Shown one piece after another: positions 3,454-46,530 of a stretch of 47,139 nt of DNA. The notes beneath the pieces were generated by a model. The model was given only the letters and a program-made list of their open reading frames with translations, was not told the origin of the DNA and made no database searches. Every line of letters begins with the position of its first letter. Positions within the stretch are counted from its first letter, which is position 1. Source of the stretch: a virus (taxonomy: Duplodnaviria; Caudoviricetes); IMG/VR virus record IMGVR_UViG_3300022407_003814, positions 1 through 47,139 of that record. One strand, written 5' to 3'. The position numbers were made by a program, and so were the translations under genes.

Positions 3454-5766
3454 ATGAGTCAAGACCTCTATAAAGGGTGGGCGTTGTATTACGCATCACT
3501 CGGGTGGCACGTTTTCCCCCTCAAACCTGGCACCAAATACCCCGGCTGCGAACACGGCAGCAGCGAAGCAACCACTGACATCAATCAGATAACCCGCTGG
3601 TGGGACGCGTCTCCTAACTCCGGCATTGGCATGCGGCCGGCAACCTCCGGGCTGTACGTGCTCGACATGGACCCCCGCAACGGCGGCGAGGCCAGTTTCG
3701 CGGCGCTGCAGGCGGAACACGGGCTGCTCCTGTCGCCGGTGATGGCGCAGTCTGGCCGCGGTACCGGGTTTCACATGTACTTCGCAGCACCGGTGCCTGG
3801 CACCCGCTACAAAGGGCAGCCCGGCCCGGGCCTGGACGGTAAGCACAACGGTTTCGTGGTGCTGCCGCCATCAATCCATCCCGATACACAGCAGCCCTAC
3901 ACCTGGATGACAGGAACACCTGGTGCGGGTGAGCAGCTGCCCGTGGCGCCGGTATTCCTTGAGAAACACATAATCGAACGGCCCGACCGTGTACCGCGCG
4001 CCGTCGATCCTGCGGAACTGCCGTCGATCAAAGCCGCGCTCGCCTATCTGGACGCCGAAGACAACGAGACCTGGCAGAACACCATGGCCTCCATGAAGCA
4101 CTGGGGTGACCACGCCGAGGCTGAGGCCGAAGCAATGGAGGCGTTCTGTGAGTGGTCGGCCACCAGCGGCAAGCCGGAGCACAGCGGCAACGAGCATGAA
4201 ATCGAGAAACGTTGGGACAGCTGGTCCAGCGATGCACCCGGAGCCCGCACCATCGCTTCGGTGTTTCACGATGCCAAAGCGAAAGGGTTCCGCATGGGCC
4301 CGGACGCCAAAGCTGCGTTCGACAAGATGCAAGAGCTGCTCGGAATGCAGGTTGCGGCGCCGGTGGCCGAAGCACTCAACACGCCGGAACCTGTCACAGT
4401 AATCGCCGGTGAGTTCGAACCATTGGCTGCGCTGAAAGTCACCCAGGTGCACACGTTCAACGATCACCTGATGGACGCCGCGGTGCTGCGTGACTCCGAG
4501 GGCGTCTTCCGTGCACGCCTAGGCTCGTTCGAAGGCGCGTCCCACTGGTGGAACGGCCGTTGCTGGGAATACGCGCCTGACGACGAGCTGCGCCGGCTGA
4601 TCGGAATCTCAATGATCAGCGCCACGATCAAAACCTCGTCCGGCCGCATCAAAGGTACGCTCGAAGTGCTGCGCGACCAGTTGCCGCGCTACGGGCAGTC
4701 GGACCCGCCGTCGTCGTTTACCTTCTTTGCCAACGGCGTGCTGGACACCGGCAGCGGGCAGCTACGGGCGCACGGGCCTGAGTACCGCAACAGCCGCACC
4801 CTGGCCGTCGACTACGATCCTACCGCGCAGTGCGTGCAGTGGCTGGCGTGGCTGGCTGATATTTTCCGCAGTGACCTCGAACGTATCTCGTTGCTGCAGG
4901 AGATGCTCGGGTGGTGTCTTTGCCGCGATCACCTGGGTATCGAGAAGTCGATGATATTTATCGGGCCACCGCGCTCAGGCAAGGGCACCATCATCAAAGT
5001 GCTCCGCGCGCTACTGGGTGACGGCGCTGGGGCATTTGCGCTGCCGACGCTGGACGACAACAAAATCCTATCCGGTATGCGCGGCCAAAACGTCAGCATC
5101 GACAGTGACACGGCGAGCCCTGGGCGCAACAACGCGCGCCAGGTGGGCGGCCTGTTCAAAACGATCAGCTCCAATGAACCGGTGTCGCTGGCGCTGCTGT
5201 ACACGCAGGCTCCCTGGCAAGGCGCGCTCAACTGCAAACTGCTCCTGGCTTCCAACAGCATCCCGACGCTGTTCGATGACTCGGGTGCCAGTGCCAACCG
5301 GTGGATACCGTTGGCGTTCGACCGGTCGTTCCTCGATCACGAACAGGTTGACCTGGCCGACCGGTTGCTGGTGGAGCTGCCCGGGATCGCCGCATGGGCT
5401 GTACAAGGCCTTCAGCGCCTCATGCGCAACGGCCGGTTCACCTTGCCGCAGTCGAGCCGCGATGAGTTGGGCAATATGCTGTCCAGTAGCTCCCCCACCG
5501 AGAGCTACATAAAAGACCGTCTGGTTGTGGCGGCGGGCCAGCGTGTGAGTGAGGCGGAGCTGTGGGACGATTACCTCAAGTGGTACGTGGTCGAGGGCCT
5601 AGAGCAGATGAAACGGCGGGACTTTATGCGGGCAATCGCTGACGCCTTACGCGGGCGAGGCGCTACTCACAAGCAGGCCATACGTTTCGGATTGAACGTT
5701 TTGAGGGGGTTCGAGGGGGTTTCACTGGCGCAAGGCAACGTGGTGCCCATACGTTCAGGAAATTGA
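3454..5766 (+). CDS. Bifunctional primase/polymerase - PriCT-2 - D5/SF3 helicase (P4 alpha-like)
   Basis: GWHVFPL, VLDMDPRNGG, GFHMYF and FVVLPPSIHP (Prim-Pol); Walker A GPPRSGKGT; LLLASNSIP. Confidence 0.92.
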   Translation: MSQDLYKGWALYYASLGWHVFPLKPGTKYPGCEHGSSEATTDINQITRWWDASPNSGIGMRPATSGLYVLDMDPRNGGEASFAALQAEHGLLLSPVMAQSGRGTGFHMYFAAPVPGTRYKGQPGPGLDGKHNGFVVLPPSIHPDTQQPYTWMTGTPGAGEQLPVAPVFLEKHIIERPDRVPRAVDPAELPSIKAALAYLDAEDNETWQNTMASMKHWGDHAEAEAEAMEAFCEWSATSGKPEHSGNEHEIEKRWDSWSSDAPGARTIASVFHDAKAKGFRMGPDAKAAFDKMQELLGMQVAAPVAEALNTPEPVTVIAGEFEPLAALKVTQVHTFNDHLMDAAVLRDSEGVFRARLGSFEGASHWWNGRCWEYAPDDELRRLIGISMISATIKTSSGRIKGTLEVLRDQLPRYGQSDPPSSFTFFANGVLDTGSGQLRAHGPEYRNSRTLAVDYDPTAQCVQWLAWLADIFRSDLERISLLQEMLGWCLCRDHLGIEKSMIFIGPPRSGKGTIIKVLRALLGDGAGAFALPTLDDNKILSGMRGQNVSIDSDTASPGRNNARQVGGLFKTISSNEPVSLALLYTQAPWQGALNCKLLLASNSIPTLFDDSGASANRWIPLAFDRSFLDHEQVDLADRLLVELPGIAAWAVQGLQRLMRNGRFTLPQSSRDELGNMLSSSSPTESYIKDRLVVAAGQRVSEAELWDDYLKWYVVEGLEQMKRRDFMRAIADALRGRGATHKQAIRFGLNVLRGFEGVSLAQGNVVPIRSGN

Positions 5767-6126: not shown

Positions 6127-6495
6127 ATGGTGGTACTCGATTACTTTGGGGTGGAATGGCTGTGTGACCAGATCCAGGACGGCAACACGTTGACTGCTGC
6201 TGCTGCTGAGGCAGGTGTGCCACGTTCTACGTTGCTGCGGTGGGTGGCCGCCGACCCGGTTCGCTCCGCGCGCGTGCGCGAGGCCCGGCAGCAGGCCGGC
6301 GCAGCATGGGACGACCTGGCAGAGCAGGGCCTCAAGGACGCCAAGACGCCCCACCAGCTGGCAATCGCCCGCGAACTGGCACACCACTACCGATGGCGCG
6401 CCCGGGCCATCGATCCGCAGTACAAGGAAAAAGTGCAGCAGGAACACACCGGCGACCTACAGGTGACTCAAATCGTTCGCAAGGTGATCGACTGA
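6127..6495 (+). CDS. terS: Terminase small subunit
   Basis: GGAGGT SD; N-terminal HTH (GVPRSTLLRWV); YRWRA...PQYKEKVQQEHTG; TGATG coupling to terL. Confidence 0.88.
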   Translation: MVVLDYFGVEWLCDQIQDGNTLTAAAAEAGVPRSTLLRWVAADPVRSARVREARQQAGAAWDDLAEQGLKDAKTPHQLAIARELAHHYRWRARAIDPQYKEKVQQEHTGDLQVTQIVRKVID

Positions 6496-7736
6496 TGCAG
6501 CTCCAGATCGACACACCGCGCTGGGCGCTACCCCTGTTGCCCCCCAGGCGCTACAAAGGCGTGAAGGGGGGTCGTGGGTCCGGCAAGAGCCACTTTCTTG
6601 CCGAGTTACTGGTCGAGGAGCACGTGGCGAACCCGAATCAGCAGTCCGTGTGCATCCGGGAGATTCAAAAGTCGCTCAAGTTCTCAGCCAAAAAGCTGAT
6701 CGAAAGCAAGATTCGCTCCCTGGGCGTGGCGCACCTGTTCGACATCACGCTCACGGAGATTCGCCGCGTAGGCCACGAGGGGTTGATCATTTTCCAGGGG
6801 ATGCAGGATCACACCGCGGACTCGATCAAATCCCTGGAAGGCTTCGACCGAGCGTGGGTGGAGGAAGCGCAGAGCCTGTCGCATCGGTCGCTTGAGCTGC
6901 TCCGACCGACCATCCGCAACCACGGGTCGCAAATCTGGTTCAGCTGGAACCCTGACCAACGTACGGACGCGGTGGATCAGTTCATGTGCAGCGACGATGC
7001 GGCCAACGATCCTGAGTTCATCACGATTCACGTCAACATCACGCAGAACCCGTTCCGGCCCCAGGTCCTGGTCGATGAGATGGAACGCGACCGCGCATCG
7101 GCGCTCGATACGTTCGGCCACGTTTGGCTCGGTGAGTACCGTGACCGAACCGACGCGCAGATATTCGCGGGCAAGTACCGTATCGGCGCCCTGGACTGGG
7201 CGGCAGACTGGGACGGCCCGTATCACGGCCTCGACTGGGGATTCAGCCAGGACCCAACCGCCGCCACACGCTGCTGGATCGCACCAGGCAACGTGCTGTA
7301 CATCGATGCCGAATGCGGCAAGGTGGGCCTCGAACTTGACGACACGCCGGCATATCTGCAGAACGCGCTGCCTGGGATCGCCGATTACGAGGTCATCGCG
7401 GACAGCGCGCGCCCCGAATCCATCAGCTACGTGAAGCGCAAAGGCATACCGCGATGCGTCGGGGCCGTGAAGGGCAAAGGCAGCGTTGAGGACGGCATCG
7501 ACCACCTGAAATCGTTTAGCCAGATCGTCATTCACCCGGACTGTGTTGAGACGGCCGAGGAATTCCGGCTCTATTCGTACAAGATCGACCGCAAGTCGGG
7601 TCAGGTGCTGCGCGACATCGCGGACAAGTTCAACCACTACATCGACAGCCTGCGCTACGCACTGGAGAAGGTGATGATCGCCAAGCAACCAGGCGTCGGC
7701 CTGATGATGCCAGCGAGATTACGTCGCAGGGGTTGA
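6495..7736 (+). CDS. terL: Terminase large subunit, PBSX family (headful packaging)
   Basis: GGRGSGKS Walker A, WVEEA Walker B, GLDWGFSQDP, ADSARPESI, NHYIDSLRYA. Confidence 0.96.
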   Translation: MQLQIDTPRWALPLLPPRRYKGVKGGRGSGKSHFLAELLVEEHVANPNQQSVCIREIQKSLKFSAKKLIESKIRSLGVAHLFDITLTEIRRVGHEGLIIFQGMQDHTADSIKSLEGFDRAWVEEAQSLSHRSLELLRPTIRNHGSQIWFSWNPDQRTDAVDQFMCSDDAANDPEFITIHVNITQNPFRPQVLVDEMERDRASALDTFGHVWLGEYRDRTDAQIFAGKYRIGALDWAADWDGPYHGLDWGFSQDPTAATRCWIAPGNVLYIDAECGKVGLELDDTPAYLQNALPGIADYEVIADSARPESISYVKRKGIPRCVGAVKGKGSVEDGIDHLKSFSQIVIHPDCVETAEEFRLYSYKIDRKSGQVLRDIADKFNHYIDSLRYALEKVMIAKQPGVGLMMPARLRRRG

Positions 7737-7761
7737 CAGGTGCGGCGACTGGGGCGAGTAT
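7732..7761 (+). promoter_or_regulatory. Sigma70-like promoter with palindromic box
   Basis: TTGACA-17-GAGTAT; box gttgac aggtgc ggcgac overlaps the terL stop codon. Confidence 0.7.
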
Positions 7762-7800: not shown

Positions 7801-7998
7801 ATGACTTCTGTTGTAAAATGCGCAGCGCACCCGGCGGACGGTAAGGAACTCGTCGTTCGAGTTTTTGAAGTAATCGAGGGCGAAGGTTTTGATGACGTGA
7901 AAATTATCGAAGAACGCGTTCTGCAGAACGGCGAAACTTTCGACGCAGTTATTTTCGATCAACGACGCGTTGTCAGTTTTGAGCGTGATAAAACCTAA
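7801..7998 (+). CDS. Hypothetical acidic protein (65 aa), co-transcribed with a structured RNA
   Basis: GAGGA/GGGAG SD; lies between the promoter at 7733 and the terminator at 8312. Confidence 0.8.
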   Translation: MTSVVKCAAHPADGKELVVRVFEVIEGEGFDDVKIIEERVLQNGETFDAVIFDQRRVVSFERDKT

Positions 7999-7999
7999 C

Positions 8000-8311
8000 A
8001 ACCAGCGCCAAGGACCAGGGGCCGCGCATGCGGCGAGTTGCACCAGATGTACCGCCGAGTCCCGAAAGGGTCTAAGGGCGTCGAGATGTAAGGTAATGCC
8101 CCTCGGGCCGAAAGGCTGACGCTATGCGGAGGGGCGCTGAACCGGCACGTATAGACCCGTACCGGCAGCGAGGCGGACCTGGCCACATCACTTGGCGGTA
8201 CATCTGGTGCAATTGGATTTCTTCGGTAGGTGGGACTCCTAGAAAATCGCGGACCTTCGCGGCAAGGCATGAGCCATTTGCACCAACCCACACCCTGCTG
8301 CTCCAGACCTT
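8000..8311 (+). ncRNA. Putative highly structured non-coding RNA, not assigned to a family
   Basis: Helix 8036-8060/8190-8214 with G-U pairs, two GAAA tetraloop hairpins, several crossing helices, no credible ORF. Confidence 0.7.
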
Positions 8312-8335
8312 GACCCGCTTCGGCGGGTTCTTTTT
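8312..8335 (+). terminator. Rho-independent terminator
   Basis: acccgc-ttcg-gcgggt followed by tcttttt (cUUCGg loop). Confidence 0.88.
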
Positions 8336-8343
8336 GAAGCACA

Positions 8344-8373
8344 GTTGACACACGCGACATCTTGCACCAAACT
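8344..8373 (+). promoter_or_regulatory. Sigma70-like promoter with palindromic box
   Basis: TTGACA-17-CAAACT; gttgac acacgc gacatc. Confidence 0.7.
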
Positions 8374-8405
8374 GCGACCACTACCACGAACTGGAGCAAC
8401 AGCAG

Positions 8406-8843
8406 ATGTATCAGACCGAGAAAGACATCCAAATGCAGCAAGCCGTCACCGGCGGGCAGATGAAAACTAACTATTGGGCCGAGAAAACAGCGCGTCAGGC
8501 CGCCCAGCTACGTCAGCGTGACGACGCCCTGGCCACCGCGCACCGCCACTTCAGCATCTACCGCTGGGTCGCCATCGTCGGCTGGCTCATCGCGATTGCG
8601 CTGCTCACCCTGCAGCCAACGTACGCCACTGCCGCAACGCTCCCGGTTGGCAGCTTGGCCTGTGACAACGCCCTGGCCTACGAGGCGCAGATGCTCACGT
8701 TCAGCGATGCCACGATCGTAGCTGACCCAGGCTGCGTGTTCACCGACCGCGATCTGGTGGTGTACGTCGTCAGCGGCAACGAGGTGTTCGTTGAGGAAAT
8801 TGGGTTCAGCGTTTGGGCTGATGCGGAGGTGCTGGAGCCATGA
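8406..8843 (+). CDS. Single-pass membrane protein with an acidic C-terminal domain
   Basis: GGAG SD; TM WVAIVGWLIAIALLTL; two Cys in the C-terminal domain. Confidence 0.75.
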   Translation: MYQTEKDIQMQQAVTGGQMKTNYWAEKTARQAAQLRQRDDALATAHRHFSIYRWVAIVGWLIAIALLTLQPTYATAATLPVGSLACDNALAYEAQMLTFSDATIVADPGCVFTDRDLVVYVVSGNEVFVEEIGFSVWADAEVLEP

Positions 8844-9058
8844 GCACCAAACAGATCTACCTGCTCGAACAGATGTACGAAGGCTGCGGCACAGGCGCCC
8901 TCGTCGTCCGCGCAGCCTGCGAGACCTGCGCCCGATCCGTGGCAGCCGGTGAAGCTGGATCAGAAGGCCCCGCAGTGTGGCGTGACCCCGAGCGGTCCAC
9001 CTGCAAGCGGGTAAACGAAGACGGCAAAAGCGGCGTTGTGCTGCGTAGTGAGGGTTGA
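8840..9058 (+). CDS. Hypothetical protein (72 aa)
   Basis: ATGA coupling; GGAG SD. Confidence 0.75.
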   Translation: MSTKQIYLLEQMYEGCGTGALVVRAACETCARSVAAGEAGSEGPAVWRDPERSTCKRVNEDGKSGVVLRSEG

Positions 9059-9062
9059 GGCC

Positions 9063-9581
9063 ATGAGCAGTGTTGAAATCGCAATGACCTTCTGCATCGC
9101 CGCACACGCTGCCGTCGGCCAAGTGCGTAAGTACACCGGTGAGCCGTACTCAATGCACCCAATGGAAGTCGCTCGGATCATCATCGAGCACGTGCCGGAC
9201 TACACCGACGAGATGATTTGCGCCGCCCTGCTGCACGACGTCGTCGAGGATACCCAGGTGCCGTTGGCGGTCGTGCGCGCGATGTTCGGCCCAACCGTAG
9301 GCGACATGGTGGAGCAGCTGACCGATGTGTCGAAGGCAGAAGATGGCAACCGCGCCGTGCGCAAGGCTATCGATCTGCAGCACACTGCTCAGGCGTGCCC
9401 GGCGGCCAAGACTGTCAAACTGGCTGACCTGATCAGCAATTCCAGCAGCATCACGGCTCACGATCCCGAGTTCGCCAAGGTGTACCTTGCGGAGAAACGG
9501 GCGCTGCTGGAAGTGTTGCGAGAAGGTGACCCAACCCTGTACCAAATGGCGTACGACATCGCTTACGGAGCTGTGCAATGA
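9063..9581 (+). CDS. HD-domain small alarmone hydrolase-like protein (RelA/SpoT HD, Mesh1-like)
   Basis: AH..QVRKYTGEPYSMHP, AALLHDVVEDT, VEQLTD, VKLADLISN. Confidence 0.88.
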   Translation: MSSVEIAMTFCIAAHAAVGQVRKYTGEPYSMHPMEVARIIIEHVPDYTDEMICAALLHDVVEDTQVPLAVVRAMFGPTVGDMVEQLTDVSKAEDGNRAVRKAIDLQHTAQACPAAKTVKLADLISNSSSITAHDPEFAKVYLAEKRALLEVLREGDPTLYQMAYDIAYGAVQ

Positions 9582-9832
9582 CCAGCAAACGCGACTCAAA
9601 AAAGATTTACCTCAGCTTCGTGCGCGAGGGCGACGCCTTCAGCATTCAGGACCAGGACGGCCGCAAGGTTGCCGGGTTGAAAGGCGCGGAGCTGAAGTTT
9701 CAGCACGACGAACTCGCCGAGATTCAAATGCGCGTGCTCGATTGCACCGTGGCACATGACGAAGAAACCTGGCACATCGGGCGACCGCGCCCCGGCGCCG
9801 ATAAACCAAAAATAGAGATGCGCGAGGGTTGA
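9578..9832 (+). CDS. Hypothetical protein (84 aa)
   Basis: ATGA coupling; GGAG SD. Confidence 0.7.
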   Translation: MTSKRDSKKIYLSFVREGDAFSIQDQDGRKVAGLKGAELKFQHDELAEIQMRVLDCTVAHDEETWHIGRPRPGADKPKIEMREG

Positions 9833-9834
9833 GC

Positions 9835-10311
9835 ATGAAAACCAACGACGAATATACCGGCAGCACCACCTACTACCAGGTCGACATCACGAACCCGATC
9901 AACGAGCAGGCGCAGCCGTACACTGCCGAGTGCCAGGACATCATCGACGCCCTGGGCATGACGTTCAACGAAGGCAATGCGTTTAAAGCACTGTGGCGCC
10001 GTTGCGCGGCCCGCACCTTGGGTAAGTCGAAGCGAGGCTACACCGACGGGCTTTACGACGCTGAGAAAGTGGTGTTCTACGGGGAGCGCCTGGTGCAGCT
10101 AGAGCAATTGCAGCGCAAGGCGGACGGAGTTGAGCAGGGTGAGCTGACTTTGTCGGGAGAAACGACGGCTATCGGGGCTACTCATGTCGACCGAGAAGGC
10201 TACCTTTGTAAGCAGCGAGACGGAGCCTGGCACCAATACGTCGCAGGTGTATGGTGCCAGTTCAGCAGCTTTCCGGAGGGGCTCGTGGAGCTACCTCCTC
10301 GCAATCCGTGA
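9835..10311 (+). CDS. DUF3310-like protein (T7 gp1.7 nucleotide-kinase-like) with C-terminal extension
   Basis: ECQDIIDALGMTFNEGNAFKALWR...DAEKVVFY. Confidence 0.7.
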   Translation: MKTNDEYTGSTTYYQVDITNPINEQAQPYTAECQDIIDALGMTFNEGNAFKALWRRCAARTLGKSKRGYTDGLYDAEKVVFYGERLVQLEQLQRKADGVEQGELTLSGETTAIGATHVDREGYLCKQRDGAWHQYVAGVWCQFSSFPEGLVELPPRNP

Positions 10312-10346: not shown

Positions 10347-11258
10347 TCACGCTTTCTCCGGTGCCGGGTTTCGTTCCAGTAGCGCCTGTGCCCGCGCGAT
10401 AACGCCAGGGTTCAGTGGCTTGCCATCCTTGTCAACGAGAACGGTTATCGTTCCGCACTTGCAATTAAATTTATTGCCGTCCTGATCCCACCACAACCGC
10501 TGCTCCTGAGTCGTGTATAGCTTCGCGTGGCGCGCCCGGTGCGTTGGGCGCGTGGTTGGACTCAGAGCCGAAAAATGCATCTCCTTGGTCAGGATACCCA
10601 GGTCCGTCGTAGCCTGGTCCGCCTCCTGCAGCCGGGCAGCTCGCAGCGCCCCGGGCACCTCGGTACGCGCGATGCGCATTGCTGCCCTTGACTCGATACC
10701 GATCTGTGACGTTAGCTGCGCGGCGATATCCCGTACCCCCTTGCCGATCGCCAGCCCGTCCGATAGCACTTGGCCCATATGAGTACGCACCTCGGCGGTG
10801 TAGCCCTTGAGCGATTCCTGAATGCGGCCCTTGAGGAAACCCAGGCGCGTACGGTAAGGCTGCGATGTCAGCAGCGAGTCGAGCGTGGGGCGCGAGGCGG
10901 CGTACGCTGCAGACTGAATCGCCAGGTTCGATAGCTGCATAGCCGTGCCTTGCTGGTACGCCGGCTCAACGTACGCCTCGTTGAACCACAGGTCGCGGCC
11001 ATTGGACTCCAGCAGCAGCCGTTCCACCTGGGCGCCCACGTCGTCGAGCTGCATCTGCAGCATCTCGGGCGTTAGGTCGTATTGGTATACGCTAGCGTTG
11101 ACCGTGACCACGCGGTACGGAATGCGGCCCAGCAGACCGATATACAGCGCCCGAACCTTGGCGAGCCGGCGGTCAAAGTCGTTGATGGCGCCACGCTCGC
11201 GTCGGTCCTGCGCCGTTGGGTCGTGCGGGTTGCTAGGGAGGATCGCTTGGGCGGCCAT
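10347..11258 (-). CDS. Head morphogenesis protein (Mu F / SPP1 gp7-like)
   Basis: RIARTE, TRPTHRARH, FNCKC; AGAGGT SD. Confidence 0.9.
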   Translation of the reverse strand: MAAQAILPSNPHDPTAQDRRERGAINDFDRRLAKVRALYIGLLGRIPYRVVTVNASVYQYDLTPEMLQMQLDDVGAQVERLLLESNGRDLWFNEAYVEPAYQQGTAMQLSNLAIQSAAYAASRPTLDSLLTSQPYRTRLGFLKGRIQESLKGYTAEVRTHMGQVLSDGLAIGKGVRDIAAQLTSQIGIESRAAMRIARTEVPGALRAARLQEADQATTDLGILTKEMHFSALSPTTRPTHRARHAKLYTTQEQRLWWDQDGNKFNCKCGTITVLVDKDGKPLNPGVIARAQALLERNPAPEKA

Positions 11259-11271
11259 GGGGTAACCTCTA

Positions 11272-11301
11272 GTTGACATTTGCGTCACCTTAGCACATTC
11301 T
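11272..11301 (+). promoter_or_regulatory. Sigma70-like promoter with palindromic box
   Basis: TTGACA-17-CATTCT; gttgac atttgc gtcacc. Confidence 0.7.
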
Positions 11302-11329
11302 GCGCGCTCACAGATACGGAGCAGTTCAG

Positions 11330-11743
11330 GTGATTAAAGACAAGATGAAACGCAGAATACGGGACTATTGCGACAAGCAATACCCCGTGAAACTCGACAT
11401 CGTGCAGAACGACGACCACCGGCCCTTGTTTAACAACCGTTGCCAATGGAACGCCGACGCCCTGGTGCGTCAGGGTAAAGCTGTGGCAATCGTAGAATGC
11501 GTGGTGCTGTGGGGTGAATATGCAACCTTGCACTACGTCTGCCTCGGGCCGGACATGAAAGTATTTGATGCGACGTTGGGCCCTATCTACACGGGTTCCG
11601 ACTACCGGCTGATTAGCGTAATCCGGGACTTCCCGAACAACGACCCTGACGAGAAGTTGTGCAACATGAAAGACCAGATAGCAAAAGCGGCCGGCGTGCC
11701 TGCACCGCTTCGCAAGTGGTACGGGTCAGACAACCTGCTCTGA
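11330..11743 (+). CDS. Moron-like protein with a possible Cys-His-Asp (transglutaminase/papain-like) triad
   Basis: Own promoter and GGAG SD; NNRCQWNA...LHYVC...FDATLG. Confidence 0.7.
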   Translation: MIKDKMKRRIRDYCDKQYPVKLDIVQNDDHRPLFNNRCQWNADALVRQGKAVAIVECVVLWGEYATLHYVCLGPDMKVFDATLGPIYTGSDYRLISVIRDFPNNDPDEKLCNMKDQIAKAAGVPAPLRKWYGSDNLL

Positions 11744-13120
11744 CGGCGGCTGTTGTGCAAGCAGCTCATCGTCAGTCGGTCCGACGTCCGGCAGCGGTGC
11801 GGGCATGTCTTCCACCTCGAAGCCCGCCGTCGTGACGATCTGCTCAGGTGTGAAGTACTTGTCGCCAGTGGAGTTGCCCAGGTTGTTCGTCTCGGCCATC
11901 AGTTTCGCATTGGCCAGGCGTTCGCTGAGGGTAGCCTCGCCCAGGTCGTCCCACACGCACGTGATTTCAGGATCGGTGCCACTGAGCGGGGTATCGAGCA
12001 GGCGGTACTTCGACAGGTGGGCAACGAAGCCCTCGATATCGTCGCTCAGCTCGTTGACGCGGCGACCCTGGCCCCGTTTGTTGAAGTCCTTGATGTCTTC
12101 CGTGGAGGCACGTTCGCCAGTTTGCATGCCAACTACGATTTTGACGGGGATCTGCACGCTGGCACACGCGGACTGGAGCGCCACGTTAAACGGTTTCTCA
12201 GGATCCGGGACAGTGGCGACCAGGGGCGTAACCGTCGCCCCCTGCATGCCGAGAACGGTGTCCTGCCCGCGGTTCATGCCCTTGGCGATGTCATCGAATG
12301 CAGTGTGCAACTCGCTCAGCGGCACCCCGTACATCCGTGCCACCTGGTCCATTTGCGTATCTTTTTCGAAGTTGATCGCTAGTTGACGCGATGCGTTCTT
12401 GAGGAACGATTCACCCGCACCGCCGACCACTTTCTCAATCGTCACGAAGTCGTTGTAGCCGGCCTTGAGCAACGGTACGCCGGTACGATAGTCGCCCACG
12501 ATGAACACACGCGACGGGTGCACCTGCATGGCACGCCCCGGCTCGCGGCTGTCGTTTTCTTTGACCTGCGCCTCGTTGAATGACCACATGGACGGCTCAC
12601 CGTACGTTGGGCTGCGGTCGTTGCCGTCCCACGCGGAGGGCTCGAGCTGGCCTTCCCATGCCGGGATCAGCTTGACCAATACGCCCACTTTGGATTTCAG
12701 CGGCTGGTCCCACGTGAGCCCGTCTGCCACCTGCAGCAGGATGCCGGAGTAGTGACCGACTAGGCGCATGCGGTCCGCTTCTTTGAAGTGCTTCCACACC
12801 TTCAGCTTCTTGAACTGCTTCGCAATCGACTTTTCCCACGGCGTCTGCGTGGTGCTCTCGTCAGCCTTGTCGCCCTGGATTACTTCCGGCATTGTCTCCC
12901 AGCACTTGTCGAGCAGGCGGTGCACAACGCCGTGGGCCACGCCGTGACGCTCGTACATGCGGTACAGGTCGGCGAACACCAGGTCGTTCGGGAAGCCATA
13001 CTCGCACCAGGCACCTGGGCGTTTGGCGTCGTTGCCGCCCAGGGACAGGGCGTTACGTGAAGCGATGATTTGCCGCTGCGTCAGTTCGTTGACGGCCAGC
13101 TCAAGGGGCGTAGGCTGCAT
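11726..13120 (-). CDS. Portal protein (DUF1073-type), inverted
   Basis: YGFP..L.F.DLYRMYERHGVAHGVV, VHPSRV, IPVKIVVGMQTGERASTED; GGAG SD at ATG 13120. Confidence 0.88.
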   Translation of the reverse strand: MQPTPLELAVNELTQRQIIASRNALSLGGNDAKRPGAWCEYGFPNDLVFADLYRMYERHGVAHGVVHRLLDKCWETMPEVIQGDKADESTTQTPWEKSIAKQFKKLKVWKHFKEADRMRLVGHYSGILLQVADGLTWDQPLKSKVGVLVKLIPAWEGQLEPSAWDGNDRSPTYGEPSMWSFNEAQVKENDSREPGRAMQVHPSRVFIVGDYRTGVPLLKAGYNDFVTIEKVVGGAGESFLKNASRQLAINFEKDTQMDQVARMYGVPLSELHTAFDDIAKGMNRGQDTVLGMQGATVTPLVATVPDPEKPFNVALQSACASVQIPVKIVVGMQTGERASTEDIKDFNKRGQGRRVNELSDDIEGFVAHLSKYRLLDTPLSGTDPEITCVWDDLGEATLSERLANAKLMAETNNLGNSTGDKYFTPEQIVTTAGFEVEDMPAPLPDVGPTDDELLAQQPPSEQVV

Positions 13121-13194
13121 GTGAGTCGCTCCGGGGCGATTGGGTAATGCTGGACAGGATACACGCACGGTTGACACAGTGGGTAGTTACGGGA

Positions 13195-13254: not shown

Positions 13255-13776
13255 ATGACATTCATCGTTACGTTTTCAGGGAAGCAGTTCGAACTGCTCA
13301 ACCCTACGCCTGAAAGAGTTGACATACGCGACATTGCGCATGCCCTCTCGCGAGTTTGTCGCTTTAACGGACATACCCGTGAACATTATTCGGTCGCCCA
13401 GCATTGCGTGCTCGTTTCCCGCAACGTTCCGGCGCATCTTCGGCTTGAGGCGCTACTGCACGACGCAGCCGAGGCTTACATCGGGGACGTTACTAGTCCG
13501 CTGAAAAGGGCCCTCGGAGAAGGATATAAGATGATCGAAAGGCGAGTTGAACGCGCGGTTGCGGACCACTTCGGCATTGACTGGAAAATGGCGCCTGAGG
13601 TGAAACTCGCAGACTTACGCGCGCTGGCAACGGAACGGCGAGACTTACTGGCGTACCACCCATCCGAGTGGCCGATGCTTGAAGGGATTGAGGCATTCGA
13701 AGAAACAATCGAGCCGATGACGTGCGACAGGGCAGAGTCTGCTTTCTTGAAAGAATTCCACGTCGTAACCCGCTGA
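13255..13776 (+). CDS. HD-domain 5'-deoxynucleotidase-like phosphohydrolase (YfbR/YfdR-like)
   Basis: DIAHALSRVCRFNGH..HYSVAQH, LLHDAAEAYIGD..SPLK, VKLADLRALATERRDL. Confidence 0.9.
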   Translation: MTFIVTFSGKQFELLNPTPERVDIRDIAHALSRVCRFNGHTREHYSVAQHCVLVSRNVPAHLRLEALLHDAAEAYIGDVTSPLKRALGEGYKMIERRVERAVADHFGIDWKMAPEVKLADLRALATERRDLLAYHPSEWPMLEGIEAFEETIEPMTCDRAESAFLKEFHVVTR

Positions 13777-17160: not shown

Positions 17161-17426
17161 GGTTTTATCTCTTCTAAAAATACGCGTCCCGAACGGTAGA
17201 TTTTCGTAAAACGACTGAGCAACCAGTTTGCCTCCATGTGCGGAAGCGGACCTAAGTTGACCTGCTCCCTGATCCCGTTGCTACGTACCCAAATCACATT
17301 GTACAAACGTACCGTCGGCGGCACCGGTCCGAGGTCCTCAATGGTCGAGAGGTCCAGGGTGCCTAATGTCGACCAGCTTTCGCCGCCGTCCATTGAAAAT
17401 TCTACTTTTACGTCTTTGCCGACCAT
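17157..17426 (-). CDS. Hypothetical moron protein (89 aa)
   Basis: GGAG SD, ATG 17426; own promoter. Confidence 0.7.
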   Translation of the reverse strand: MVGKDVKVEFSMDGGESWSTLGTLDLSTIEDLGPVPPTVRLYNVIWVRSNGIREQVNLGPLPHMEANWLLSRFTKIYRSGRVFLEEIKP

Positions 17427-36907: not shown

Positions 36908-37855
36908 TTACGCGATGTAGCCGGATTCGCGCAGGTTCTGTTCGGTCCAGCCAGCGGCCAGGAACGCAGCGTAAGTCACGCCGGGTTGCTCAGCAGCAGC
37001 TTTCGGCGTCAGCGTCGGGCCAGCGGCAACCAGGTCGCGCGCCGGGGCTACGGGTGCTGGCGCTGGTGCTGGTGCTGGTGCTGGTGCTGGTGCTGGTGCT
37101 GGTGCTGGTGCTGGTGCTGGTGCTGGTGCTGCCTGGGGCGCGGGGGCCGGAGCAGGCGGAGTAGCGCCAGTTGCAGCGGGCGGCACCGTGGTGGCGCCTT
37201 CCGGCAGCGCAATCCCGACGCCAAAGCCGGCTTTCGACACGTCCACGTCACCGCCGCTTTTCATCACAGGCCCGTATGCGATCAGTGCCACTGCTTGGTG
37301 GTTGGCGAACAGGCCCGGGCTTGCCGAAGGCGCGTTGCTCTTGAAGTCGCACATTACTTGGACGAAGTAGCCACGTTTGATCGCGTCGGTTTCAGTCAGC
37401 AGGTTTCCCTGCGAGTGGAGGTAATCGAGCAGCTTCGGGGCATTACGGTTGCTGAAGTGGATGATCCAGTGACCCGGCCAGCCTTCCTTATCGCAGTTCT
37501 TGTTGCCCTTTTTGTTCGGCACGGTGCTGTCGCCGTCGTCGATTTTCCAGCTGAAGTCAGCACGTTGCGCCTGTGCTGGAAACTCAGCGTGGCCCAATGC
37601 CCAAATGGCAGGGAACATGTCGCCGGCAACGCCATTGACGATACCTTTGATTGCCTCGCTGGCCCAGTGTGCAACACCAGGCGTCTTCTTGACCGCGATG
37701 CTGAAGTCGTAGGTTGGGTTGGGTTGACCGGCGTTAGGGCCGGACTTGATTACCTTCGGGTTCCCTTCGTAATCAGTAGTGCGCTGCACGTAAAGCGACC
37801 CGGAAACGAGTCGGCCTACGGCGGTGGTGATTTCGAGTACGGCTGATTCTGCCAT
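36908..37855 (-). CDS. Single-stranded DNA-binding protein (DUF2815 / gp2.5-like) with a Pro-Ala linker
   Basis: VGRLVSGSL, FSWKIDDGDS, GWPGHWII; sits between DUF2800 and polymerase. Confidence 0.8.
   Translation of the reverse strand: MAESAVLEITTAVGRLVSGSLYVQRTTDYEGNPKVIKSGPNAGQPNPTYDFSIAVKKTPGVAHWASEAIKGIVNGVAGDMFPAIWALGHAEFPAQAQRADFSWKIDDGDSTVPNKKGNKNCDKEGWPGHWIIHFSNRNAPKLLDYLHSQGNLLTETDAIKRGYFVQVMCDFKSNAPSASPGLFANHQAVALIAYGPVMKSGGDVDVSKAGFGVGIALPEGATTVPPAATGATPPAPAPAPQAAPAPAPAPAPAPAPAPAPAPAPAPAPVAPARDLVAAGPTLTPKAAAEQPGVTYAAFLAAGWTEQNLRESGYIA
37053..37130. repeat. (GCTGGT)n hexamer microsatellite encoding (Ala-Pro)n
   Basis: 11 perfect units at 37062-37127 plus flanking degenerate or partial units. 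Confidence 0.95.
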
Positions 37856-40560: not shown

Positions 40561-40934
40561 TTGGCGATGTAGAAGGGGTTGAGGCGAGAAACGACGGAGA
40601 ATCGAATATCGCCGTCTTCATCAGGTAAAAAAGCGCCGTGGGCTCGATTGGGTAGTACCGAATCGACCACGTGATTATACAGCTTAAGGGCACGGCGGCC
40701 ACGTTTGGCCGCAGCGGCTTCAATACGTGCCGCCTGGATCGGGTCCACCGGGTTGCGCAGTGCGGTGCCGGTTGGGCGGTAAGCTGCGGTGCCGGTTGGG
40801 CGGTAAGCTGCGGTGCCGTGTTGGATAAAAGCTGAGGGTTGCTTACCCTGTAACCACTTGCCGCCTGCCGCTAAGGCTGCAAGCAGGGCCGAACCGATGC
40901 CGCGTCGGCCGTCGCCAATAATACCTACTTTCAT
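40557..40934 (-). CDS. Hypothetical basic protein with a 24-bp tandem repeat
   Basis: ACGGAG SD; first gene after the promoter at 41001. Confidence 0.75.
   Translation of the reverse strand: MKVGIIGDGRRGIGSALLAALAAGGKWLQGKQPSAFIQHGTAAYRPTGTAAYRPTGTALRNPVDPIQAARIEAAAAKRGRRALKLYNHVVDSVLPNRAHGAFLPDEDGDIRFSVVSRLNPFYIAK
40762..40818. repeat. 24-bp tandem repeat x2.4 (GTAAYRPT)
   Basis: gcggtgccggttgggcggtaagct at 40762 and 40786, partial at 40810. Confidence 0.9.
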
Positions 40935-46208: not shown

Positions 46209-46530
46209 GATCAAAAAGTACAGGCTGATCGGCGAGATGGTGGAGCGATCCAGGGTTGGCGGGGCGAATTATGTATTGCTTGCCGACTTCGACCGTGTAA
46301 CCGCCGAGCGTGACGCGGCGCTCAAGACGATTACCGAGCTACTGGAAGACCTAACCCCGCCCCAACCCATCTACGACGAGGTGAAGGAGCGGGCGCTGTT
46401 TGAGCAGGGCTACCACCACTCGGCGCTGGCACGAGACGGTGATGAGTACATACGCATGTCGGTACAACTGGCTTGGGAAGGCTGGGAGAAGTGCGCCCAG
46501 TCCCGCGCCAAAGCTGGGGAGGCTGTGTGA
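46201..46530 (+). CDS. Hypothetical protein
   Basis: GAGGT SD; FDRVTAERDAAL module. Confidence 0.72.
   Translation: MSEIKKYRLIGEMVERSRVGGANYVLLADFDRVTAERDAALKTITELLEDLTPPQPIYDEVKERALFEQGYHHSALARDGDEYIRMSVQLAWEGWEKCAQSRAKAGEAV

Follow-up and report, generated by a model that had tools for sequence, protein, structure and literature searches.

A structured RNA family in an exchangeable helical frame of phages and prophages

The small RNAs RNAC and RNAD of phage T4 are linked to its tRNA cluster. They are phage-encoded, and their function is given as unknown in the passages of PMC9697503 that deal with them. The RNA family described here, referred to as class A, resembles them in being a phage small RNA, one copy of which (locus L213) lies behind phage tRNAs. 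Likened by description, it differs from RNAC and RNAD in being held in an exchangeable frame and in its sites, which include early regions of prophages as well as the position after terL and mostly lack tRNA genes. The fold of class A, with 130 nt and an invariant core, is new and may bear on the long-standing question of what "stable RNAs of unknown function" do in phages.

Phage counter-defence has been read almost wholly from proteins, and in the few cases known for RNA, a single known host RNA is copied. Non-coding RNAs by which phages neutralise defence through mimicry are described in the relevant parts of three sources: pseudo-ToxI (PMC3475682), RNA anti-CRISPRs (PMC10651486), and viral sgRNAs (10.64898/2026.06.01.729453). 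By analogy, they provide a mode of action that may be proposed for class A. Those mimics copy a known host RNA and have 30–100 nt, whereas class A has ca. 130 nt, is single-copy and multi-junction, and a host original was not found among 151 Pseudomonas genomes, at 23 reverse transcriptase (RT) loci, or in 23S rRNA.

Two further systems resemble the locus in architecture. In Y RNAs (YrlA), a terminal helix bears a separate and often tRNA-like module, and the Ro60 gene is placed within 4 kb in the portion of PMC4201824 on this topic. The class A cassette likewise consists of a terminal helix with a separate module. Unlike YrlA, it has no T or D arms, no exact 5' GNCGAAN0-1G motif in its invariant columns, and no Rfam match to this family, and PHROG and Pfam scans gave no TROVE-type annotation in the window. 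Phage arrays of structured units of ca. 150 nt, which are gained and lost, are reported for the ncRNAs of UG27 RTs; in the sections of that report that cover the units, these share one fold and need the RT (10.64898/2026.09.22.753630). In the class A frame, payload folds differ, and no RT was found in six records (see below).

The abiF RNA motif (RF03085) is cargo in arrays that share a leader with class A. Class A does not match abiF, which is a fellow passenger rather than a relative.

RNase III substrates are double-stranded helices of about two turns. Processing stems for this enzyme, as in T7 early RNA and rRNA leaders, are helices of 20–30 bp that close a domain within a longer transcript. 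The class A closing helix, with 25 bp, has the length of such a substrate and resembles the processing stems in length and position, cleavage being a prediction here. Unlike plain processing stems, the arms of the frame found in the window (frame 1) keep a sequence like that of a tRNA 3' end and can switch partner (arm b with arm c).

We describe class A as a new family of structured RNAs that occupies a modular slot for RNA cargo in phages, and we infer a function for it. One expression frame bears at least 15 unrelated folded RNAs. As this frame is present, without annotation, in the cultured phage MR14 and in two sequenced Pseudomonas genomes, it is testable now. A natural plug-in scaffold for structured RNAs may also be of use in biotechnology.

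Genomic setting and predicted transcription unit

The window, i.e., the whole stretch of 47,139 nt that was analysed, is a complete 47-kb genome of a tailed phage with direct terminal repeats. A PHROG search revealed terS, terL, an inverted portal-head block, and genes for tail, lysis, and replication. Among cultured phages, Pseudomonas phage MR14 is the closest (65% identity for the capsid, 62% for the portal protein) and has the same gene order. Because of this relationship, and because class A copies are present in two Pseudomonas genomes as well, the host of the window phage is probably a Pseudomonas. The portal and head-morphogenesis genes (10347–13177) are on the strand opposite to the other virion genes, as they are in MR14. 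The genes that closely follow the RNA unit include those for two HD-type phosphohydrolases and for a protein weakly matching the polynucleotide kinase/phosphatase family (9036–10311 and 13255–13776), for which a role in nucleotide or RNA-end metabolism is possible. The amino acid identity of terL is 93–95% in L001 and L086/L089 (L001: 93%). The terL gene of L001, the closest relative, is frameshifted near its 3' end (4118–4119), possibly due to an assembly error. Near-identical dispersed repeats are found in the window at 17424–17459/34050–34085 and at 46289–46322/46567–46600. Further repeats are located at 40761–40837 and 37041–37160, the types listed being a 24-nt tandem repeat and a Pro-Ala-coding hexamer run in the gene for a ssDNA-binding protein.

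The element is larger than first described, its leader starting at 7999 and its terminator ending at 8337. Its parts and immediate surroundings are as follows.

6495..7736, + strand: terL, terminase large subunit (PHROG terL matches); context only, class A also being found far from terL
7733..7761, + strand: promoter-like site with a TTGACA that overlaps the terL stop, a spacing of 17 nt, and a hexamer with A2 and T6
7801..7998, + strand: ORF for 65 aa in the same predicted unit; other sequence is in its place in relatives
7999..8034, + strand: array leader, conserved, with the motif CAACCARCGCCA at 7999–8010 and a 5-bp hairpin at 8021–8034
8036..8060, + strand: arm a, 5' strand of the closing helix, starting like a tRNA acceptor 3' strand plus ACCA
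8061..8189, + strand: class A payload, defined by alignments A3 and A4, pair counts, and covariance model R1
8190..8214, + strand: arm b, 3' strand of the closing helix, the outer 12 nt of which can pair with arm c instead
8217..8273, + strand: second slot with a small multi-hairpin payload, common to L086, different or empty in other relatives
8274..8285, + strand: arm c, third copy of the arm motif, ending in ACCA and complementary to 8205–8216
8312..8337, + strand: intrinsic terminator-like hairpin and U run, also in L001, L086, L091, and MR14
8345..8373, + strand: next promoter-like site, conserved in L001 and L086

The spacing of the promoter-like site at 7733..7761 is identical in all five genomes compared (the window, L001, L086, L091, and MR14). 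The same arrangement occurs at 9 of the 26 TTGACA sites of the genome, and a strict consensus scan missed the site at 7733..7761. Judged by its sequence, this site would have promoter activity, and we consider it very likely that the class A unit is transcribed from the end of terL. The predicted transcription unit would have ca. 570 nt and would include the 65-aa ORF. The gene downstream has its own promoter-like site at 8345 and thus needs no read-through from the cassette. Class A was present in contigs of none of four RNA-labelled runs (found via the relative L298), which is evidence neither for nor against transcription. Among four further runs, there was one contig with class A, from a run with no library type stated.

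The 65-aa ORF has no match in PHROG or Pfam and none by tblastn in L001, L086, and L088–L092; in the ESM Atlas, it falls in small clusters of hypothetical viral proteins. In L086, its place (1060–1460) is taken by ca. 400 nt that are poor in genes and contain a T-loop-like hairpin as well as GNRA hairpins. This stretch has no Rfam match, and two pieces of it are no more stable than shuffles (z −0.2 and −1.4).

Fold and distribution of class A

The 129-nt interior of the cassette in the window is a member of an uncatalogued RNA family, class A, with 16 distinct phage or prophage sequences (window included). A 16-base core pattern matched 22 viral stretches; four of these (L217, L225, L231, and L237), in which the remainder of the motif is missing and scores do not exceed 16.3 bits, were dropped as chance matches, and the remaining 18 represent 14 distinct sequences. 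A metagenome scan with this pattern returned six stretches, which are the record of the window itself or repeat copies already known, and a genome scan returned two Pseudomonas copies, one of them new. With covariance model R1, members score 148.8–169.9 bits (17 hits in 77 sources) and the next match 16.3 bits. When applied to 151 Pseudomonas genomes, R1 had a single match, to the known prophage copy. The unpublished genomes G100 and G162 are counted only in genome tallies, and no claim is based on them alone. A blastn search with class A found nothing in 50,697 phage records and one chance match among plasmids.

Every class A copy found is from a phage or prophage. Its placement downstream of terL, as given in the initial annotation, is correct for the window but represents only one of several settings: class A also follows a capsid gene in L226, lies between nin genes and a holin, behind tRNAs, in L213, and has a CI-like repressor gene nearby in L218. 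This lack of constant neighbours fits a trans-acting cargo. Class A resides in three frames: frame 1 with three sequences, a second with L213 and L220, and a third with 12 sequences. The closing helices of the three frames differ in sequence but all pair, 22 helix columns (9–30) being largely paired.

In the window, 8036–8060 and 8190–8214 pair over 25 bp, including two G-U pairs (G8037-U8213 and G8057-U8193). This helix and its G-U pairs had been recognized initially, and all other segments listed at that time are also found where they had been placed. Within a distance of 400 nt, it is the longest + strand helix in the genome, except for G-U artefacts of the hexamer repeat at 37053–37131. 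The region 8000–8230 has a folding z of −4.73 (+ strand) and −4.19 (− strand), with 0 of 200 shuffles as stable. The interior alone is of ordinary stability (z −0.66, with 49 of 200 shuffles as stable), so that the inner helices rest on the comparison of homologs. Alignment A3 has 17 rows for the 16 distinct cores because one truncated duplicate core is included.

Class A has a nested fold with + strand polarity. Over the nested structure, 93.4% of the cells are paired, and compensatory (two-sided) changes occur in 27 of 57 tested pairs. None of 500 shuffles was as high, and slid controls reached 33–40%; kinship among the rows can inflate these controls, yet several pairs show three or four pair types. 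Five helices are paired in all 17 rows and show compensatory changes: 8085–8089/8185–8189, 8091–8094/8177–8180, 8098–8104/8129–8135, 8106–8109/8114–8117, and 8136–8138/8167–8169. The third of these, which had been proposed from the window sequence, bears the hairpin 8106–8117. Both of the GAAA hairpins that had been suggested (8061–8070 and 8106–8117) are paired throughout, but compensatory change is seen only in the second and is absent from the stem 8061–8063/8068–8070 of the first. The first two helices flank an invariant GGCC bulge at 8181–8184. The arm 8136–8169 is variable and exists in three unrelated versions among the aligned class A sequences. Among pair-type columns, G-U occurs in 14 and A-C in 3 (p 0.013), an excess that favours a + strand RNA over a DNA cruciform. 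The original reading of the G-U pairs as a sign of selection on RNA is thus borne out by the covariation and by this bias.

The pseudoknots that had been considered the defining feature of this RNA fared less well, as none of them covaries. For 8077–8083/8117–8123, only three central pairs are kept, which are invariant; C8079-G8121 is broken in 16 of 17 rows, and U8117 is already taken by the GAAA hairpin. The presumed kissing interaction 8068–8074/8152–8158 has 7 bp only in the window copy (3–6 bp in the other 15 sequences) and reuses G8068–8070 of the first hairpin. In all three versions of the variable arm, the loop keeps some complementarity to 8068–8076, which makes a weak contact possible. 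The helix 8085–8094/8177–8189 is real but is nested, as it crosses only the two unsupported helices. Three 4-bp crossings (8078–8081/8124–8127, 8070–8073/8171–8174, and 8069–8072/8181–8184) fit at least 15 of 16 sequences; all of them are invariant and show no covariation. The specific pseudoknots of class A are unproven.

The strand 8068–8085 (18 nt) does not vary in any of the 17 rows, and the nested model leaves most of it unpaired. Further invariant segments are 8118–8120, 8124–8129, 8172–8174, and 8181–8184. Judged from the alignment, such long invariant unpaired strands would imply tertiary contacts or a binding surface. The 18-nt strand, being largely unpaired, could also belong to a base-pairing sRNA that targets host or phage RNA. 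We consider this quite improbable: the other invariant segments provide several possible internal partners, which points to tertiary structure, and neither strand of the rRNA locus was matched significantly by class A. No ORF is conserved across class A, the core lengths of 109–135 nt covering all three reading-frame classes; lengths that differ by non-multiples of three leave no conserved reading frame.

In the initial annotation, the RNA could not be matched by eye to the hammerhead, twister, pistol, HDV, tRNA, tmRNA, SRP, or RNase P consensus. A search of the window against Rfam 15, the families of which include ribozymes, riboswitches, tmRNA, SRP, RNase P, and GOLLD, gave no hit at cut-off, and there was no match on class A at the homolog loci, including 14 loci that were tested. 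A match to rsmX (22.1 bits at E up to 10; cut-off 56) is driven by the terminator and not by class A. The data support class A as a conserved, Rfam-negative, structured + strand RNA with a long closing helix. ARAGORN found no tRNA genes, and there is no D arm, T arm, or cloverleaf and no Rfam tRNA match on class A, while sister payloads do score. Two further readings were dropped: a group I intron (P7 motif), the 3' partner of which is not conserved, and a D arm at 8061–8078, where loop position 2 varies as in a GNRA loop. In the full-text literature, no description of class A or of its frame was found; the catalogue of viral structured RNAs in PMC10690425, the supplements of which were covered in part, could hold class A. 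A literature motif search returned only unrelated papers that match the leader 12-mer.

Retron-like a1/a2 arms had been suggested as a parallel to the closing helix. The 25-bp helix is a terminal inverted repeat as in retrons, a feature that is common to many RNAs, but an adjacent RT (RVT_1) is absent from the window genome and from all five related records (two of them at least 90% complete). With filters off, the best score of R1 at 23 retron/DRT2 RT loci, a sample that by design covers only St85-type retrons and DRT2, was 20.9 bits (members reach at least 148), for a two-strand palindrome ca. 1.1 kb from the RT match. No model match was convincing at 14 loci with a retron RT profile, and blastn at the RT loci found terminators and chance matches only. 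Type III antitoxins (ToxI and abiF) are tandem repeats of 33–50 nt next to the toxin gene. This type does not apply either, as class A is a single 129-nt unit, no direct-repeat family lies over class A among the 20 largest, and the window has no abiF match. A search for ToxN, which found nothing in 301 genomes nor in the controls, is uninformative.

Class A might serve as a ligand-binding sponge for a small molecule, e.g., a metabolite or a nucleotide that signals in immunity. The invariant junction strands around the bulged helix would suit this function, and because the window has no gene between class A and the terminator, any aptamer would act in trans. However, no riboswitch family matches class A in Rfam (E up to 10), and the neighbouring genes provide no clue to a ligand. 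We consider this explanation quite improbable.

Exchange of payloads within the frame

The closing arms form a constant frame, overlooked in the initial annotation, within which payloads are exchanged. Nineteen frame-1 cassettes are listed; in each of them, the duplex of arms a and b has −32 to −56 kcal/mol. Under stricter criteria, the census comprised 20 rows, from which two reverse readings were removed. Among the 18 payloads left, the only links by blastn are those of L115 to L129 and of the three class A copies to each other, resulting in 15 unrelated payload types. The frame-1 arm sequence is conserved, and the arm b:arm c pairing amounts to −16.7 kcal/mol.

The slots move independently of each other. 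Slot 1 of the window is shared with L091 (82%) and slot 2 with L086. Window positions 8197–8408 are 97.6% identical to L086, which nevertheless has a different slot 1; the second slot is empty in L091. In L001, the leader, arms, terminator, and next promoter are kept, while the interior is unrelated and has ca. 40 nt. The flanks of the third frame (L298) were found in contigs of all four public runs analysed, with a single joint per run, in which 104–107 other bases replace class A.

The leader pattern matched 53 viral stretches. A helix of at least 16 pairs follows at 26 of the 53 distinct leader loci compared to 3 of 53 shuffled ones; other loci are empty. At genome scale, the leader is not enriched (1 of 301 genomes versus 3 for the reversed control). 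Among loose leader-arm matches, 107 of 120 were dropped for lack of a closing helix of at least 13 pairs, and two of four arm-motif matches (L085 and L087) were dropped because the second arm is missing.

The RNA might act in cis as a transcription or processing signal (antitermination or leader), with the payloads as interchangeable stabilising domains. Lysis or early genes lie downstream of many leader loci, and a gene or a terminator comes directly after some leaders. In the window, however, a terminator closes the unit, and a separate promoter-like site precedes the next gene. Moreover, a mere spacer would not need a strand of 18 nt to be invariant in three frames and four genomic contexts. 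We regard a cis-acting role as unlikely.

Another possibility is that the arms are hairpin recombination sites at the DNA level (attC-like), which shuffle the cassettes with the payload being passive. The swap borders are sharp at the arms, the three arm copies alternate in orientation, and empty versions exist. However, the G-U bias is strand-specific, and covariation is found inside the payload. The swap borders lie inside the helix at varying depth, as with ordinary recombination in conserved flanks, and no integrase or recombinase was annotated in the window (62 ORFs against PHROGs, 35 against Pfam). Recombination sites of this type are highly improbable. An attC-like TAAC at the stop of the 65-aa ORF is not kept in L001.

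Several payloads are tRNA-shaped. Arm a, which follows the 5-bp hairpin, can itself be interpreted as resembling a tRNA acceptor 3' strand plus ACCA. The proposal that arm c is a universal acceptor stem with CCA was dropped, as only part of the 19 cassettes have the ACCA end. Slot 1 of L086 has a tRNA-shaped interior with an expanded anticodon arm (Rfam tRNA, 26.9 bits). The slot-2 payloads of L155 (1315–1412) and L164 (1634–1730) are tRNA-like, with arms b and c as acceptor stem and an expanded anticodon arm. In MR14 (L092, MT104474.1; 46435–46593 and 1–470), the array consists of a tandem of framed cassettes, two in number, and of three more hairpin modules, which are not annotated as RNA. 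The payload of the first cassette has the shape of a tRNA, with an anticodon loop of 4 nt and no free CCA end. The annotated gene gp01 of MR14 overlaps the array, and the first 84 bases of this record repeat its end.

Other payloads scored against other RNA families. The abiF RNA (RF03085) was found in a same-leader array at L285 (902–938, − strand; 47.4 bits, cut-off 37), where the motif lies at the 3' end of the phage array, and weakly in L251, L288, and L289. An Abi_2 gene was not found in any of five records (three complete; the L285 record is 27% complete). The abiF-type RNA in phage arrays is a candidate RNA anti-defence element in its own right. A hammerhead-like sequence lies directly behind the leader in L296 (1456–1498, − strand), with 25.8 bits and E 0.037, which is below cut-off. 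The slot-1 payload of L141/L164, which is a second recurrent payload, resembles by eye a permuted 23S L1 stalk, but this reading was rejected (99 and 150 of 300 shuffles as high), and the payload of L129 is marginal with respect to 23S rRNA (14 of 300 shuffles as high).

Compact folds with invariant unpaired segments and a variable arm are typical of catalytic RNAs. Class A combines several junctions in a compact fold of this kind, in which long unpaired segments are invariant and a single peripheral arm varies freely, and the weak hammerhead match is in a slot of a sister array. Class A might thus be a new ribozyme, which could process, e.g., the cassette precursor or neighbouring tRNA-like RNAs. 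However, there is no Rfam ribozyme match (E up to 10; 14 homolog loci) and no covarying pseudoknot, and unrelated payloads take the place of class A in the same frame, so that the cassette does not need a class A activity. We consider a ribozyme unlikely.

Possible processing and decoy function

Two suggestions of the initial annotation, that the closing helix is an RNase III site and that the RNA mimics a defence RNA, are both plausible. The explanation that we tentatively prefer, although we would not call it probable, is the following: a transcribed precursor is cut, likely by RNase III, and the released RNA serves as a protein-binding decoy. The promoter-like site at the end of terL and the terminator would yield a precursor RNA. 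Host RNase III would then likely cut the closing helix and release a stable RNA of 130–160 nt. Taken alone, this processing step is slightly more probable than not. The conserved sequence of the frame-1 arms could mean a specific binding protein rather than RNase III.

Once released, the RNA would likely work in trans, as a decoy to which an RNA-binding protein of the host binds, with a defence factor as the most likely candidate. Its recognition surface would be the invariant unpaired strand 8071–8084 together with the GGCC bulge. The decoy reading is based on class A travelling through four genomic settings without a partner gene, and on the other occupants of the slot, among them tRNA shapes and, in same-leader arrays, abiF RNA. 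The theme of mimicry among the payloads, with altered anticodon arms in the tRNA-shaped ones (L086, L155, L164, and MR14), is in its favour. In the part of 10.1101/2025.04.15.648962 that concerns it, abiF-motif RNA neutralises the AbiF toxin in trans, and a precedent for an antitoxin-mimic RNA of a phage is described in the corresponding part of PMC3475682 (pseudo-ToxI of PhiTE). Against it, a host original did not emerge from the searches given above, and the abiF evidence comes from other arrays with another frame, the L285 record being a fragment. Mimicry of 23S rRNA by class A was not detected (38 of 100 shuffles as high; 188 of 300 under circular permutation), the rRNA locus having been compared on both strands, with 16S covered only in part. 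On balance, a decoy function of class A is a possible but tentative assignment.

More broadly, Pseudomonas phages might run a general RNA cargo system, in which a constant frame of leader and helix would serve to express, release, and stabilise any folded RNA and would carry a changing arsenal of decoys, such as tRNA shapes and antitoxin RNA. Class A would then be a decoy or a catalytic RNA directed at an undiscovered RNA-dependent defence of the host. We regard this wider reading as rather doubtful. If it is true, the binding partner of class A would reveal that defence system.

At five class A loci (L222, L223, L227, L235, and L299), a conserved module of ca. 170 nt, which has no Rfam match, is located downstream of class A in a helix frame of its own.
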